Below, piece by piece: positions 2,109 through 6,352 of a stretch of DNA of 6,352 bases. The stretch lies in the IMG/VR virus record IMGVR_UViG_2690316285_000017; one strand, 5' to 3'. The stretch is from a virus (taxonomy: Duplodnaviria; Heunggongvirae; Uroviricota; Caudoviricetes). Below the pieces are notes generated by a model. That model was not told the DNA's origin, made no database searches, and saw only the letters and a list, made by a program, of their open reading frames with translations. The position numbers and the translations under genes were made by a program. How positions within the stretch are numbered: position 1 is the first letter of the stretch; each line of letters begins with the position of its first letter.

Positions 2109-2666
2109 ATGCAGTATTCAGAATTTAGAGCGATGCTTCAGGCATCAAGAGAACGCAACAAGCACAACTCCTACGCTTACACAAACAACCCCACCAGCTA
2201 CGAAGTCCCAACCTTTAGCAAATCCGAACGTAAGAACATTGAAGCGGTCATTCGTAGCATTACGCCACGAGACAGATTTATGCCAGTACGCAAAACAACA
2301 AAGAATACTATTAAAAATTATCTGGCTAACTTTGACAGTTACGAGCAGTTACCAAGCAAGCTTGATGATGTTTTTATTGGGTTCTGTAGAAGTGAAGGCC
2401 ACCCGAAATACAACAAAAAACTATTTTATCTGCTAAAGAATCTTGACGAAATTAACGCATCCACCGTGACAAATCATCTTCAGCGACAGGCAACCAGACT
2501 TAGTTACGAATTACCAAGCGATAAATATTGCGCTTTGCTTGCTGTGATGTGCGCGAAATTAATTGGCATTGTTGAACATCATATTGCCGTTGGGAATATT
2601 GAGCCAATGGAAAACGAGCAACCAGATTTCGAGTTTGACCCCTATTTAGTTACAGAGGATTTTTAA
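2109..2666 (+). CDS. Hypothetical protein (185 aa), first gene of the operon downstream of P1
   Basis: ORF-track ORF; sits downstream of P1, and its stop abuts the next start (TAA then ATG). SD is weak (gagag about 11 nt upstream). No recognisable motif. Confidence 0.6.
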   Translation: MQYSEFRAMLQASRERNKHNSYAYTNNPTSYEVPTFSKSERKNIEAVIRSITPRDRFMPVRKTTKNTIKNYLANFDSYEQLPSKLDDVFIGFCRSEGHPKYNKKLFYLLKNLDEINASTVTNHLQRQATRLSYELPSDKYCALLAVMCAKLIGIVEHHIAVGNIEPMENEQPDFEFDPYLVTEDF

Positions 2667-2945
2667 ATGAATAAACACACATTAACCAGAGTTACAAAGA
2701 CAGCCTTTGATGAACTGAACCGAATCAAAAACATTACAGGTCTGCCACACTCAGCAGTGATGAAGCTTGCAATTAACCGTGATATTAACGAACAGGATTT
2801 GCTTAATAGTCGCTTAGAGGCTGCAAGACACCATATCAGGATTAAGCAAGATGACCTTGATAGTCTGAAATCCTTAAATGCTTTTGGACTGGATTTAGCA
2901 AGGTTACTAAGTATCAAAATTCACAAACTGTCTCAGGAGGTCTGA
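2667..2945 (+). CDS. Putative ribbon-helix-helix (CopG/Arc/MetJ-like) DNA-binding protein, 92 aa
   Basis: SD gagga 7 nt upstream of the ATG. The N-terminus HTLTRVTKTAFDELNRIKNITGLPHSAVMKLAINRDINE fits the RHH pattern: beta-strand, helix A, G-x-P/S turn, helix B. Assignment is from pattern memory, not a search. Confidence 0.6.
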   Translation: MNKHTLTRVTKTAFDELNRIKNITGLPHSAVMKLAINRDINEQDLLNSRLEAARHHIRIKQDDLDSLKSLNAFGLDLARLLSIKIHKLSQEV

Positions 2946-2947
2946 TT

Positions 2948-3220
2948 ATGAAGCAATGGCGAGATGATATTAAACGGTTCTTTGCAACTTACTTCATGAT
3001 TAATTATGAGACAGGAATGCTTGAATGGATTGATGGTGGAGAGGTTAAGACAAGAGATGATGCTTACGGTAATCCAATGATTCGTTATGGCACTCGTGAT
3101 TATTATCTGAAGTATGTCATCTGGTTTTTGCATCATGAAGTTCAGGCAACTAAAAAGATTATCTTCAGGGATGGTAATAAAAGAAATTGCCACCCAAACA
3201 ATTTACTCCTGGAGATTTAA
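2948..3220 (+). CDS. Small protein (90 aa) with a degenerate HNH_3-like motif, probably not catalytic
   Basis: SD aggagg 7 nt upstream. YLKYVIWFLHH...IIFRDGNKRNCHPNNLLL resembles the HNH_3 signature (H.L.W..hG...DHIDGNK.NN..NLR), but FRD replaces the catalytic DH(I)D. Confidence 0.6.
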   Translation: MKQWRDDIKRFFATYFMINYETGMLEWIDGGEVKTRDDAYGNPMIRYGTRDYYLKYVIWFLHHEVQATKKIIFRDGNKRNCHPNNLLLEI

Positions 3221-3420
3221 TGTTATGTATTAAATTCGAATATTTGACAGATAAAATGATTAAGCATGTATCAGACCTGCTCATCAAAGAAGGTGGTTTC
3301 GGTGATGCTTGCAATCCAAAAGATATCTTCATTCATGCCACCAGCCCAAACGCAACACTAAAGACAGCAGTTACAGCGGAATGGTTTGAACGAAATAAAG
3401 CGGAATTAGGTTATTGGTAG
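3220..3420 (+). CDS. Hypothetical small protein (66 aa), translationally coupled to the upstream gene
   Basis: ATG at 3220-3222 overlaps the upstream TAA (3218-3220) as TAATG; SD ggag about 6 nt upstream. The track's longer ORF from 3187 overlaps the preceding gene by 34 nt and has no SD, so the 3220 start is preferred. Confidence 0.55.
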   Translation: MLCIKFEYLTDKMIKHVSDLLIKEGGFGDACNPKDIFIHATSPNATLKTAVTAEWFERNKAELGYW

Positions 3421-3456
3421 TCCGAGACTTTAAGAGAAATTAGAAAAACAGCTTAT

Positions 3457-3576
3457 CAGACGCTCTCAATCGCATTCTAACGCAAAAAACTATCTTATTT
3501 TAGGGTGGGTAATACCACTACAGGCTACCCCTGAAAAAGACTGTTTAGCTCGTTACAGAGCGATTGAGGAGGTCTG
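3457..3576. repeat. Inverted-repeat element B (~120 bp), paralogous to element A
   Basis: 5' arm cagacgctctcaatcgcattctaacgc (from 3457) and 3' arm cgttacagagcgattgaggaggtctg (3551-3576). Intergenic between the gene ending at 3420 and the gene starting at 3597. The arms can form a stem of about 26 bp with about 4 mismatches. Confidence 0.8.
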
Positions 3577-3596
3577 GTAAAAAGGAGATTTTAAAA

Positions 3597-3920
3597 ATGA
3601 ACGAATATGAATTACAGATTTTCATTGATAGCGACACTGCTATGATGGTGCAGGCTTTCGCTGATTCCGGTGTATCAATTGACCTTGATAAATTACTAAA
3701 GCTAATGGCTGAAAACTCAGAAGAAATTGAAGACTTTATTCAGGAAATTGAAACTGGTGAACCGCGTTTTATGTTTCCTGTTACCGACTCAAACATGAAG
3801 CGTCTTATTATCGAAGAAACGAACAAATACAGCGTTAGCCCTGAAAAATATCTCAAGGCGGCTATAGCAATTTTGTATAGCGATAATATTCTGGTGACGG
3901 ATTCGAAGGTGGTGCATTAA
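3597..3920 (+). CDS. Hypothetical acidic protein (107 aa)
   Basis: ATG at 3597 with SD aaggag 9 nt upstream. The track's TTG start at 3564 lies inside the 3' arm of element B and is considered unlikely. Confidence 0.6.
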   Translation: MNEYELQIFIDSDTAMMVQAFADSGVSIDLDKLLKLMAENSEEIEDFIQEIETGEPRFMFPVTDSNMKRLIIEETNKYSVSPEKYLKAAIAILYSDNILVTDSKVVH

Positions 3921-3985
3921 TGGAATTGGTGATTATCTGTTTTGTATTGATTGGTATGATTGCAGGTGCATCTATTAAAGTATAA
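3920..3985 (+). CDS. Candidate 21 aa hydrophobic micropeptide (MELVIICFVLIGMIAGASIKV), translationally coupled
   Basis: ATG overlaps the upstream TAA as TAATG (3918-3922); SD-like gaaggtgg 7 nt upstream; the product is almost entirely hydrophobic. Very short, so it could be fortuitous. Confidence 0.25.
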   Translation: MELVIICFVLIGMIAGASIKV

Positions 3986-4009
3986 ATGTTACCAATCTGT
4001 TAAAAGCTG

Positions 4010-4038
4010 TTGACAGACAACCTTGAGCATGACATAAT
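4010..4038 (+). promoter_or_regulatory. Sigma70-type promoter P2 (TTGACA-N17-CATAAT), a paralogue of P1
   Basis: TTGACA at 4010-4015, 17 nt spacer, CATAAT at 4033-4038. The upstream ATGTTAC-N5-TGTTAAAA elements and the downstream TGTATATAT are conserved with P1. Confidence 0.6.
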
Positions 4039-4045
4039 TGTATAT

Positions 4046-4192
4046 ATGGGGGAGAGCAATTCTCTCTTATTTTTTCTTTCAATAATCCGATGGATGGATA
4101 TTCTGAGTTTGAAAGGTGCAATGCTTTTCGTCCTAGCCTTTCAGGTTGGTCTGAGAGGCTATCTCAAAAAGTCTTTGTTCATTCATTATTGA
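4046..4192 (+). CDS. Candidate leaderless small hydrophobic protein (48 aa); alternatively this stretch is the body of a ~190 nt small RNA
   Basis: ATG at 4046-4048 lies 7-8 nt after the P2 -10, where transcription is expected to start (leaderless). Product MGESNSLLFFLSIIRWMDILSLKGAMLFVLAFQVGLRGYLKKSLFIHY. TGA at 4190-4192 is followed 16 nt later by an intrinsic terminator. Confidence 0.3.
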   Translation: MGESNSLLFFLSIIRWMDILSLKGAMLFVLAFQVGLRGYLKKSLFIHY

Positions 4193-4207
4193 ATCCTTTA
4201 CAGCTTT

Positions 4208-4235
4208 GCCCTAATCATGAGTTAGGGCTTTCTTT
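4208..4235 (+). terminator. Rho-independent terminator
   Basis: Stem GCCCTAA (4208-4214), 7 nt loop, TTAGGGC (4222-4228), then TTTCTTT (4229-4235). Confidence 0.6.
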
Positions 4236-4304
4236 AAGAGTTTTTAAACAGAGCTTTTAAAGAAAGTTTTCCTGAAACTTCGTTAACGTTATAAGCAAAC
4301 CTCC

Positions 4305-4339
4305 AAAGCCCTTCACAGATTATGTTTAGGGCTTTTCTT
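4305..4339 (+). terminator. Second terminator-like hairpin
   Basis: Stem aGCCCT (4307-4312) pairs with AGGGCt (4328-4333) across a 15 nt loop, followed by ttttctt. The stem resembles that of the hairpin at 4208-4235. Confidence 0.35.
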
Positions 4340-4408
4340 AATAGAGCATCTTTAATAAATCGTTAAGTCATCTTCTAAGTGTATTGGCGTTGAAGGTGCT
4401 CTATTAAG
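4337..4408. repeat. Perfect 12 bp inverted repeat (cttaatagagca ... tgctctattaag) separated by 48 bp
   Basis: Arms at 4337-4348 and 4397-4408, directly upstream of the SD/ATG of the gene at 4436; the first arm overlaps the U-tract of the preceding hairpin. Confidence 0.8.
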
Positions 4409-4435
4409 AAATAACCACACTTAGAGGAAATTATA

Positions 4436-5146
4436 ATGACAAACGATTTATATATTAACGGTAAAAAGGTTGATAGCTTCGGAGACTGGTCACCACAGGG
4501 TGAACATCCGCTACATACTATTCAGCGTCAAGAGCATGACAAGCGCATTGAGCTTGAGCAAGAGCTAAAGATGTCACCAAAGGTAATTTCCTTTGTGTCT
4601 CCTGAGCCTCAAGAAATGCCTGATATCTGCAAAACTGAAGCACTATTTGAGCTTGAGCGTGAATATTACCCAGCTTTAAAATCACAGCGTCTTAGACTTG
4701 ATGTCGCTTACGATGCTGTTAAGAACTTCGAAGAAACCTCGAAACCTTCAGAATATGATATTGCTTACGAGATTAAGTCAAACCCGTTTATCTATTATGA
4801 AGGAAACTTTAATGATGGTTTTGGTACAGCGATTGAAGACGTTCCTAAAGTTCTTCAAAGTATCCCTGAAGGGTTCCGGTTAATTGATGTCAGACAAGCA
4901 TTAAGGGGTTCTGGTCAATTTATTCTGATGACTGATAAAACAGATGAAGAGATTCTTCAGTTAGCTGAAGCTAATTTGACTAAGCATTATTCCGGTAAAC
5001 TGGATAAGTTAAAGCAAAAGCTTAAAAAAGAACTTGATACTATGAAAGAACTTGTTAGTGAATATGAGTCGCAGAAGAAGATTGCTTTGATGGCTGATAT
5101 TGAGCAGTTAACGAAGATTTCTCAGAAGTATAGCAAGGCTGTTTGA
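4436..5146 (+). CDS. Hypothetical protein (236 aa)
   Basis: SD gagga 8 nt upstream of the ATG; long ORF with no nested competitor of comparable quality; no motif recognised. Confidence 0.7.
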   Translation: MTNDLYINGKKVDSFGDWSPQGEHPLHTIQRQEHDKRIELEQELKMSPKVISFVSPEPQEMPDICKTEALFELEREYYPALKSQRLRLDVAYDAVKNFEETSKPSEYDIAYEIKSNPFIYYEGNFNDGFGTAIEDVPKVLQSIPEGFRLIDVRQALRGSGQFILMTDKTDEEILQLAEANLTKHYSGKLDKLKQKLKKELDTMKELVSEYESQKKIALMADIEQLTKISQKYSKAV

Positions 5147-5168
5147 TTATGAATTAAAGAGGTGATTA

Positions 5169-5378
5169 ATGTTTGAAGAACGTTTAGAGACTATTCGGTC
5201 TGTTTGTGAAAACTTAAAGTTACAAACTAAGCCAGCCTTAAGAATTAAAAACAAACGTCAAGTTATCACCTCACACAAACCAAAAACACGCAAGATTCCA
5301 AAGTGGTGTATTGACCGTATTCCTTCTGATGCTCAAATCATAGGTGAAACGGAATTACATTATCTTGTCCGACATTAA
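5169..5378 (+). CDS. Hypothetical small basic protein (69 aa)
   Basis: Strong SD agaggtga 4 nt upstream of the ATG; 22 nt after the preceding stop, so probably co-transcribed; followed by a terminator. Confidence 0.55.
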   Translation: MFEERLETIRSVCENLKLQTKPALRIKNKRQVITSHKPKTRKIPKWCIDRIPSDAQIIGETELHYLVRH

Positions 5379-5534: not shown

Positions 5535-6335
5535 ATGGCACAATTTAAAGTTGATGATTTTCTGATTGAGTTAAGTTTTAACTCTCAGAAAGTTTTAAAA
5601 GGCTTGGAAAAAGCCGAGAAACAAACGATGCAGGTAGCATCACGAATTGAGAAGCGATTGAATAAGTCGTTTAGAGTTAATCCTACGCCTTTAAATGATT
5701 CTCTCAAACTAATGGAAAGAAATGTCGATAAAACTGTTTCCAAGATTGAGCAGCGTCTTAAAAACACTAGAGCGTTTAAGATTAAAACTGAAATTGAGGA
5801 TACTTTAAAGCCACTTAGACAACCAAGACAGCCACGAATTAGCGGAAGCAGAGCAATCACAGCAGCTTACTCAGCGAATATGAGCAAGCTTCGTGACTTT
5901 AATCCTATGCTTGAGAAGTATTTTAAAAGCCAGTATTACAGCTTAAGCAGTAAATCCAAGACACTTGGAAACGAAACTTTTAATCGTGAGTTAGCAAAGT
6001 TAAATCAGTCTCTTCGTGAAACACTTTCTAAGTTTAACAAGACCACCAGCAAAAATAATCACAGTGAAAATGCTTCAAATAGTCTGGATGTATTAGCTAC
6101 GAGTGCAATCAAAGCAGGTACAGCCATTTATAGTTTTCAGACAGCCTTAGAAGCTTACAGGCGGATTATGGAGGTTGGTCTGAAAAAAGAAGCATCACAA
6201 CGAGCGGCACAATTCGTTTTAGGTGATGAAGGTGCTAAACGAGCTACAGAATTTGTTAAGAATCTTGCTGATAGTAGTGGTGTAGACCAGATTGAAACAT
6301 TAAGCAGTTTTGCTAAGTTTGAAGTGGCACACTGA
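5535..6335 (+). CDS. Hypothetical protein (266 aa), K/S/T/N-rich and probably largely helical
   Basis: SD aagaggtg 9 nt upstream of the ATG; a long ORF that ends with TGA inside the window; no family recognised from sequence. Confidence 0.6.
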   Translation: MAQFKVDDFLIELSFNSQKVLKGLEKAEKQTMQVASRIEKRLNKSFRVNPTPLNDSLKLMERNVDKTVSKIEQRLKNTRAFKIKTEIEDTLKPLRQPRQPRISGSRAITAAYSANMSKLRDFNPMLEKYFKSQYYSLSSKSKTLGNETFNRELAKLNQSLRETLSKFNKTTSKNNHSENASNSLDVLATSAIKAGTAIYSFQTALEAYRRIMEVGLKKEASQRAAQFVLGDEGAKRATEFVKNLADSSGVDQIETLSSFAKFEVAH

Positions 6336-6352
6336 ATTTGGCCACCTGAACA

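Follow-up and report, generated by a model that had tools for sequence, protein, structure and literature searches.

The PLE elements of Vibrio cholerae are ~18 kb satellites of the virulent myovirus ICP1 that use a large serine recombinase and consist mostly of small ORFan genes in co-directional operons, with homing-endonuclease-related genes standing at the interface between phage and satellite. Here we examine a gene cluster at positions 2667-3420 of a 6,352-nucleotide (nt) stretch of DNA, referred to below as the window, from IMG/VR virus record IMGVR_UViG_2690316285_000017 (Caudoviricetes), which an initial annotation made from the letters of the sequence had described as a tight cluster of ribbon-helix-helix (RHH)-like, degenerate HNH-like and small-protein genes. 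The cluster belongs to an operon of a mobile island found in Escherichia coli chromosomes, and the reading we favour, at a probability of roughly one half, is that this operon is the control operon of a satellite-like island linked to Felix O1-like phages, in which an RHH-type regulator would be combined with a binding cassette built on a degenerate HNH protein.

Like PLE, the island is a compact chromosomal element with a large serine recombinase that appears tied to one group of virulent myoviruses, and it too is made up mostly of small co-directional ORFans and contains homing-endonuclease-related genes. The two, however, share no sequence similarity, and the E. coli island is smaller (~10-12 kb versus ~18 kb), has a putative rather than an established helper and, in contrast with PLE, has no recognized replication initiator or capsid-remodelling gene. 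It also carries tail genes, coding for a tape measure and a tube-initiator-like protein, for which PLEs are, to our knowledge, not known. The P4-like, PICI and cf-PICI satellites resemble the island in being chromosomal elements that rely on phage parts, contain hot-spots of variable cargo and are widespread in E. coli. These satellites, however, use tyrosine integrases, encode a recognizable primase or replicase together with packaging or capsid genes and have temperate helpers, and scans of Pfam, PHROG and NCBIfam found none of their marker families here. Relatives of the island in the window are bounded by an integrase, hold few virion genes and contain helper-related genes or cis-sites, which are the features that define a phage satellite. 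A literature search, which was not exhaustive, returned no description of this island, of a satellite with tail genes or of a satellite of the Ounavirinae, the group to which the Felix O1-like phages belong. The parts are thus of known kinds (an RHH-type regulator, a degenerate HNH protein and an island bounded by a serine recombinase); it is their combination and the link to Felix O1 that are new.

Some part of the window is matched by 744 of the 5,426 complete E. coli genomes, and 390 of them match positions 2600-3600. Copies lie inside yecE (which encodes a DUF72 protein), inside mdtG, between yciI and tonB, and between ymdF and wrbA, and each of these four integration sites adjoins a large serine recombinase gene. 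Because copies sit at four different sites beside the recombinase, we regard the unit as a mobile island of ~10-12 kb that integrates by means of this enzyme. Intact copies contain the gene array of the window, a tape measure of 688-723 amino acids (aa) that matches PHROG 4036 at 4e-96 and Pfam TMP_3, a 256-aa Dit-like protein and a divergent large serine recombinase gene that abuts the chromosome. The initial annotation had proposed gene-neighbourhood conservation as a check, and the array is indeed kept in many E. coli chromosomes, as part of this larger element. The window proteins are identical to proteins of Shigella sonnei, in which numerous insertion sequence (IS) elements have invaded the island, there located at yciI-tonB. 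The same compact architecture is also seen in Citrobacter, in Salmonella and in a distant relative from another Enterobacterales assembly (L016/L017, 7750-19854), which lies in the DUF72/yecE gene beside aspS. This relative keeps the island layout (Dam, a homologue of the 185-aa protein described below, a helix-turn-helix (HTH) protein, a small recombinase, a tape measure and a large serine recombinase), with the HTH protein in place of the RHH gene and the small serine recombinase in the middle of the island. The left arm forms a second variable region (L003, L005, L006, L008 and L021) and, depending on the copy, encodes a Dam methylase, an FRG-domain protein with its neighbours, a coiled-coil membrane protein, a complete HNH_3-AP2 endonuclease or a small serine recombinase. 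No capsid or terminase gene occurs in the island loci that were read. The element SpLE2 of O157 Sakai was considered as a copy of this island and rejected, as it lies at sbcB.

Within the window the cluster is part of a co-directional array, in which the open reading frames (ORFs) occupy the positions originally claimed for them, as judged from the ORF list and from the sequence itself. The four genes concerned are as follows.

2109-2666, + strand: 185-aa gene, first gene of the operon; helical protein; core gene of the island
2667-2945, + strand: 92-aa gene, core gene of E. coli-type islands
2948-3220, + strand: 90-aa HNH-like gene with an HNH_3 domain, putative domesticated homing-endonuclease fragment
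3220-3420, + strand: 66-aa gene, companion of the HNH-like gene (stop codon TAG at 3418-3420)

The description of these genes as joined by overlaps or 2-nt gaps was borne out when the junctions were read directly. The stop codon of the 185-aa gene (TAA, 2664-2666) is followed without a gap by the start codon of the 92-aa gene (ATG at 2667), two nucleotides separate the 92-aa gene (TGA, 2943-2945) from the HNH-like gene (ATG at 2948), and the HNH-like gene overlaps its companion in the sequence TAATG (TAA 3218-3220, ATG 3220-3222). Shine-Dalgarno-like purine runs (AGAGGA, AGGAGG and TGGAGA) lie 5' of the starts. The segment 2667-3420 thus makes up the distal portion of an operon of four translationally coupled genes, which encode proteins of 185, 92, 90 (HNH-like) and 66 aa. 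The ratio of non-synonymous to synonymous substitution rates (dN/dS) between island copies was 0.12-0.27 for the 185-aa gene, 0.1-0.2 for the 92-aa gene, 0.04-0.11 for the 90-aa gene, 0.02-0.03 for a 95-aa allele of the HNH-like gene and 0.1-0.2 (more closely 0.1-0.15) for the 66-aa gene. The 92-, 90- and 66-aa ORFs are therefore real genes under strong purifying selection. The view that the cluster is uncharacterized holds to the extent that profile and defence libraries assign it no function: none of the eight window proteins matched a PADLOC 2.0 component model at E<=0.1, NCBIfam, PHROGs and the PDB gave nothing decisive on the function of the cluster proteins, and Rfam had no match for the window. 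The cluster is not, however, the free-standing module that had been envisaged, being part of the operon of a mobile island. A role in defence or anti-defence is possible, but nothing found here points to it.

The 92-aa protein, the family of which is confined to E. coli, Citrobacter and Salmonella, is probably a single-chain double RHH protein comparable to DndE, TraY and VirC2. The family alignment falls into two similar halves, each comprising a strand-like stretch followed by two helices, and the putative beta-strands (HTLTR at residues 4-8, and R54, H56, R58 and I59) are invariant or nearly so and constitute its most conserved positions. The pattern HTLTRVTKTAFDELNRIKNITGLPHSAVMKLAI fits a unit of beta-strand, helix, G-x-S/T-type turn and helix, with alternating polar residues in the strand. 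When the halves were aligned by hhalign with a set of RHH proteins that had been typed by hand, both matched in register, with P values of 7e-4 for the N-terminal and 9e-3 for the C-terminal half. Pfam holds no domain that the family matches above the cut-off; the only recurrent match is to DndE, which 15 of the 22 family members return below the threshold (best E 0.0024; 0.027 and 15.2 bits, against a cut-off of 25 bits, for the window protein) and spans the first 44 positions of the profile, corresponding to the first RHH unit. DndE consists of two tandem RHH domains, and TraY and VirC2 are single-chain double RHH proteins (PMC10853773); VirC2 and MJ0366 have been listed as further proteins with the RHH fold (PMC5425179). 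In common with DndE, F-plasmid TraY, the C-terminal domain of VirC2 and MJ0366, the 92-aa protein would have two beta-alpha-alpha units, in a chain of ~90 aa. It differs in that its matches are sub-threshold and in that no dnd, relaxase or T-DNA genes lie near it; the island loci that were read contain no dnd genes, so that the context of dndBCD and a cysteine desulfurase that marks a DndE is lacking. A profile match to the RHH (MetJ/Arc) family at the curated threshold was not obtained, and PDB searches with the family profile and with its two halves returned chance matches, such as antibody light chains and isopropylmalate dehydrogenase. Structure prediction, which the initial annotation had recommended, was of limited help: the AlphaFold model of the 92-aa protein was poor (pLDDT 51), with helices at the expected places, and a fold search with it was uninformative, while the better model of the 185-aa protein (pLDDT 74) had no significant neighbour in the PDB. 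Thus, the RHH-like N-terminus originally claimed for the 92-aa protein is plausible by pattern and by hhalign, but every search fell below its significance threshold. The alleles of the protein form two groups that are ~60% identical and combine freely with the different cassettes described below. Taken as an RHH protein, it is probably a DNA-binding regulator of the island.

The 90-aa protein is a true relative of HNH_3 proteins. Its match to Pfam HNH_3 (PF13392) covers residues 52-88 and remains just under the cut-off (E 7.5e-5; 22.7 bits versus 24.8), stopping at position 38 of the 46 in the profile, and PHROG families labelled 'HNH endonuclease' match it at ~3e-4. The 95-aa allele, which is 39-40% identical to it over the full length, passes the Pfam cut-off (34.3 bits, E 1.8e-8), and the HNH_3-like signature noted at the outset is upheld by this homologue. 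Both alleles align end to end (BLASTP E 2e-4 and 9e-8, respectively) with the N-terminal part of an HNH_3-AP2 protein of 174 aa that is encoded in the left arm of many island copies and, being 36-41% identical to homing endonucleases of T4-like phages, is by its sequence a typical phage homing endonuclease. At the active site IDHIDGD of the 174-aa protein aligns with IIFRDGN of the 90-aa protein, so that the catalytic histidine is changed to phenylalanine and the preceding metal-binding aspartate to isoleucine; the replacement of the catalytic His-Asp that had been reported for this protein (FRDGNK instead of DHIDGNK) is therefore correct, with IIFRDGNK standing opposite IDHIDGD. The 95-aa allele reads IIHRNGN at this site and has kept the histidine but not the aspartate. 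The 90-aa chain ends in ...NNLLLEI, before the position of the last Asn/His metal ligand of the motif, and thus lacks the C-terminal half of the HNH motif as well as the AP2 domain. In comparison with phage homing endonucleases of the HNH_3-AP2 (I-HmuI) type, with the HNH_3 module of which it aligns over its full length, the protein differs in the absence of AP2, in the His to Phe and Asp to Ile changes, in the missing last asparagine and in the constant presence of a partner of 66-71 aa. PDB searches with both alleles gave chance matches only. The exact 90-aa protein occurs in 8,420 blocks of the assembly collection, and frameshifted or fused HNH-like variants also exist (P0002, P0004, P0006 and P0007). 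We infer that the protein is a domesticated fragment of a homing endonuclease that has lost its AP2 domain and its cutting residues. Because the catalytic residues are absent, yet purifying selection is strong, the 90-aa protein is predicted to act through binding. The dN/dS of 0.04-0.11, the lack of the catalytic histidine and the loss of the C-terminal half of the motif agree with the original proposal that a nuclease fold has been put to use for binding.

The HNH-like gene does not occur without its companion. Every examined locus with an HNH-like gene also contains a 66- or 71-aa gene, in either order, and the two are missing together. The 66-aa protein has no relatives beyond the island family in Pfam, PHROGs, PADLOC, NCBIfam or a tblastn search of phage genomes. 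No E. coli-type copy lacks the 185- or the 92-aa gene, while the genes that follow them vary, and the 92-aa gene is found without any HNH-like gene in four loci (L002, L005, L012 and L014). The position after the 92-aa gene is occupied by one of the following cassettes.

Type 1, that of the window: 90-aa HNH-like gene followed by the 66-aa gene; 73 E. coli genomes match, 37 of them completely
Type 2: 71-aa homologue of the companion first, followed by the 95-aa HNH-like gene; 227 E. coli genomes
Type 3: gene for an unrelated 128-aa protein with a C-terminal HTH; 126 E. coli genomes
Type 4: four-gene variant; E. albertii

The commonest allele thus has the reverse order of HNH-like gene and companion, and chimeric proteins (P0002 and P0009) are the product of recombination between cassettes. 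Three copies of a hairpin-forming sequence, listed here with the predicted folding energies of copies A and B, complete the picture.

3445-3585, + strand: hairpin copy B, 141 nt, containing an imperfect hairpin of ~125 nt; -49.2 kcal/mol, z -6.6
1823-1926, + strand: hairpin copy A, upstream of the operon; -36.7 kcal/mol, z -2.8
about 407-519, inverted: third, weaker hairpin copy, with arms at 490-556

Copy A and the segment 3452-3576 form a direct repeat of 89-91% identity. The hairpin arms read AGACGCTCTCAATCGC and GCGATTGAGGAGGTCT, and only ~10 nt separate the end of the hairpin of copy B from the ribosome-binding site that follows it. The 141-nt element is 93-99% identical in all 12 of the 12 cassette-bearing loci, in which the flanking genes are only 40-70% identical; it always lies 3' of the pair of HNH-like and 66-aa genes and is missing from loci with the HTH cassette. 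Together with the hairpin, the HNH-like gene and its 66-aa companion form one of at least three swappable cassettes, which is probably accessory to the island and not part of its core. A + strand transcript of 490-556 would be complementary to the 5' arms of the copies at 1823-1849 and 3414-3480. Satellite P4 uses an RNA-based immunity, which this complementarity recalls. The possibility that the hairpin copies are sites of the small serine recombinase was rejected, since they persist in islands that lack its gene.

The link to Felix O1-like phages comes from the tail genes of the island and from its non-coding DNA. The best full-length phage relatives of the island tape measure are those of Ounavirinae (28-34% identity). 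Some 250 Ounavirinae genomes encode a protein that matches the Dit-like protein along its entire length at ~70% identity. In phage CHB7 the gene for the Dit-like homologue lies directly 3' of the tape-measure gene, and in Bas63 the tape measure gp17 is followed by the tube initiator gp18 (PMC12609058); by synteny the Dit-like protein would be the equivalent of the Bas63 tube initiator. The two adjacent tail genes have diverged unequally from their phage counterparts, at ~70% for the Dit-like protein (L001 22521-23291; phage L026 5980-6777) against 28-34% for the tape measure. When the whole window was compared with 50,697 phage genomes by sensitive blastn, 18 records matched, 17 of which were Ounavirinae; each of these 17 matched positions 881-950 at one unannotated intergenic place, with 79-95% identity over 36-70 nt (best E 2e-6), and the remaining record was a single 39-nt match to a Xanthomonas phage. 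Local blastn extends the Ounavirinae match to 130 nt (68% identity, E 1e-10) and finds a second block; the two non-coding features concerned are listed here.

848-995: two exact 28-nt tandem repeats (848-903), followed by the Felix O1-like block (match at 881-995)
183-358: non-coding block matching phage mio (L025 2765-2940), 65% identity over 180 nt, E 2e-11

The phage counterparts of the blocks (L024 2501-2609; L025 2469-2590 and 2765-2940) fall within ~1.7 kb of repeat-rich DNA that contains no ORF and separates convergent groups of genes. The 28-nt unit of the island, TTAACAGATAACCACCTAGAAAGAAGGG, and the block that follows it are a candidate for a helper cis-site, either an origin or a packaging signal. 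On these grounds the island would be a satellite or a hitch-hiker of virulent Felix O1-like phages.

In the mechanism that we propose the operon is the early or control operon of the island and would start from a pair of back-to-back promoters at 1993-2058. The 92-aa protein, with two RHH units in one chain, would bind DNA sequence-specifically, and its targets are probably highly conserved non-coding sites of the island, namely the promoter region and the inverted-repeat elements present in several copies. The HNH-like protein, descended from an HNH_3-AP2 homing endonuclease like that encoded elsewhere in the same islands, is predicted to bind but not to cut, together with its obligate 66-aa partner. 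The likely target of the pair is the 141-nt inverted repeat, either as a DNA element or as an RNA hairpin, and binding there could gate the expression of the downstream genes; alternatively, the pair may act on a protein of the helper phage. A more far-reaching proposal, which we put forward tentatively and consider possible but less probable than the reading above, is that the islands of E. coli, Shigella, Citrobacter and Salmonella form an undescribed satellite family that parasitizes Felix O1-like myoviruses. In this proposal the island's own tape-measure and tube-initiator proteins would re-programme or sabotage the assembly of helper tails, and the ultra-conserved non-coding control region of ~1.3 kb would copy a helper cis-site; both features would be out of the ordinary for satellites. 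The HNH-like protein, the 66-aa protein and the hairpin would be a module derived from a domesticated homing endonuclease that now acts as a sequence-specific switch or as a device that interferes with the helper.

Several observations count against reading the locus as the control operon of a Felix O1-linked satellite. No genes for replication, packaging or capsid redirection were recognized in the island and, because of this, its status as a satellite rests on its phage-derived genes and the shared cis-sequence only. A tblastn search of the 50,697 phage genomes with the seven small proteins found no relative. With respect to the cassette, the 95-aa allele retains the catalytic histidine, and some alleles may thus still cleave. 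The hairpin copies, at 93-99% identity, are too similar for covariation to show, so that a role as DNA is not separable from one as RNA, and binding need not be the cause of their high conservation, which recent spread or use as a recombination junction could also explain.

Four other explanations were ranked by plausibility. It could be argued that the variable cassette is cargo in an island hot-spot, where it would act in defence or anti-defence against competing phages or against nucleases of the host or helper, and would have no part in regulating the island. P4 and PICI satellites have cargo hot-spots with defence and anti-defence genes, and the cassette position likewise holds at least three unrelated cassettes and has generated the recombinant chimeras P0002 and P0009, while the left arms carry other variable cargo (Dam, the FRG-domain protein, HNH-AP2 and the small recombinase). 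No protein, however, matched PADLOC, the cassette proteins are very small, one alternative cassette is a simple HTH protein and the cassette is translationally coupled to core genes, and we thus consider this explanation unlikely.

Improbable, in our judgement, is that the cluster is a toxin-antitoxin or toxin-immunity pair that stabilizes the island, whether composed of an RHH antitoxin and an HNH-fold toxin or of an HNH-fold toxin and a 66-aa immunity protein. The layout resembles that of a type II system, in that a small basic RHH-like gene lies directly 5' of a small gene with a spacing of 0-2 nt, and the HNH-like and 66-aa genes strictly co-occur. It should be emphasized, however, that the 92-aa gene is found equally with the HTH cassette, where there is no HNH gene, and is therefore not the dedicated partner that a type II system has. 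In addition, neither the catalytic His nor the Asp nor the terminal Asn is present in the HNH-like allele of the window, the commonest allele has the two genes of the pair in the opposite order, and PADLOC and Pfam gave no toxin match.

There is also a slim chance that the HNH-like protein is a packaging cofactor, which together with the RHH protein would direct the helper terminase to island DNA. HNH proteins assist the terminases of HK97-like cos phages, and TraY and VirC2, the double RHH proteins with which the 92-aa protein was compared above, take part as accessory factors in nicking at specific sites. In a phage-like contig (L019) a gene distantly homologous to that of the 185-aa protein lies upstream of an HNH_3 gene and a large terminase gene, and in NCBIfam the 92-aa protein has a match to a P27-type small terminase, which at E 0.027 is weak and lies far below the threshold. 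Against this explanation, the cassette is dispensable, being replaced by the HTH protein in 126 genomes, the catalytic residues have been lost, and none of the island loci read has a terminase gene, so that the adjacency to terminase genes and a cos site typical of HK97 gp74 is not seen. Least probable of all is that the cluster is a decaying homing-endonuclease remnant with ORFans in a dead prophage fragment devoid of present function: an IS has destroyed the tape-measure gene in the window, the Shigella sonnei copies are riddled with IS elements and some HNH-like variants (P0002, P0004, P0006 and P0007) are frameshifted or fused, but dN/dS values of 0.02-0.2, an architecture kept at four or more sites and in Citrobacter, Salmonella and the distant relative, and intact ORFs in hundreds of genomes largely refute this for the family. 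The control operon of a Felix O1-linked, satellite-like island is thus the reading that we retain.

The remaining genes of the window are the following.

1-155, + strand: 3' end of a small serine recombinase gene, cut by the start of the window; Pfam HTH_7, E 3.7e-7
1638-1826, - strand: small hydrophobic protein of ~58-62 aa with one predicted membrane helix, transcribed away from the operon
3597-3920, + strand: 107-aa gene, acidic product (pI 4.2); core gene, in all loci examined
4436-5378, + strand: 236-aa and 69-aa genes, 5' of the tape-measure gene
5535-6319, + strand: N-terminal ~261 codons of the tape-measure gene, truncated; PHROG 4036, E 3e-16
6320-6352: end of an IS911-type element, which the annotated IS911 end of phage Sf6 matches at 100%

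The 185-aa protein, encoded by the first gene of the operon, has a conserved acidic tail in its last ~15 codons that ends in E-[ED]-F (…DFEFDPYLVTEDF). Such a tail resembles the C-terminal interaction tails of single-strand DNA-binding proteins. HMMER found 19 relatives of this protein among 1.84 billion representatives, comprising one close full-length relative (P0045), fragments and three distant full-length proteins, all unannotated. One of the distant relatives belongs to the related island and one to a phage-like contig (L019, 1467-7049), in which a few small genes separate a 317-aa homologue from the genes, further downstream, for a 188-aa HNH_3 protein, a large terminase and an SU10-type portal. 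The small recombinase, of the resolvase/invertase type, is variable left-arm cargo, and full genes of 183-191 aa with a Resolvase domain are present in L002, L004 and L020. The hydrophobic protein is annotated as a 62-aa coding sequence in L003, L004, L021 and L023, is kept in the Citrobacter island (L014) and could be a holin-like or toxin-like peptide. The 107-aa protein has a C-terminal motif that, by its sequence pattern, may be RHH-like, and the label 'transposase' that some RefSeq records give to the 236- and 69-aa genes has no support in Pfam. The 185-, 107-, 236- and 266-aa proteins had all been thought to lack a recognizable family; this does not apply to the last, as the '266 aa' ORF is the N-terminal third of the tape measure and reads 16 nt into the IS before its stop codon at 6333-6335. 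Because the IS breaks the tape-measure gene, the Shigella-type copy in the window is probably no longer mobile, with its operon intact.

The non-coding DNA of the island is better conserved than its genes (blocks of 90-99% versus 63-86%). An ORF-free stretch at ~850-2100 (~1.25 kb, with no annotated + strand gene) is 90-95% identical between copies, against 63-86% for the flanking genes, and is possibly a large cis-acting region, such as an origin or packaging site, or a non-coding RNA. Two adjacent copies of an ~84-nt sequence (1325-1407 and 1419-1502), 74-88% identical to each other, lie within it. The window contains 12 occurrences of the motif TTAACAR, against an expectation of 3.8, and non-coding DNA accounts for 9 of them. 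The promoter pair that would drive the operon has the following form.

1993-2058, both strands: back-to-back sigma-70-like promoters, leftward TTAACA-18-TATAAT and rightward TTGACA-17-TAATAT

A consensus scan scored these promoters at 11/12 and 10/12 matches, and the block that contains them is 81-93% conserved and a candidate for the switch region of the operon. Further downstream, the 515-nt intergenic region 5' of the 236-aa gene (3921-4435) has a promoter-like site at 4010-4038 (11/12), terminator-like hairpins at 4046-4070 and 4208-4228 and a 22-nt inverted repeat at 4334-4411.

As a satellite of Felix O1-like phages, should it prove to be one, the island would give E. coli an equivalent of the Vibrio PLE-ICP1 system, in which the helper is likewise virulent. 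Roughly one in ten complete E. coli genomes contains it, O157:H7 and Shigella sonnei among them. The 92-aa protein, if its predicted fold is correct, offers a minimal single-chain double-RHH regulator, and the cluster as a whole may provide a tractable example of how a homing endonuclease is turned into a non-catalytic binder with a dedicated partner and a DNA or RNA element. Felix O1-like phages are widely used in typing and in therapy cocktails, and an island that hijacks or blocks them would, if this is true, bear on the outcome of phage therapy.

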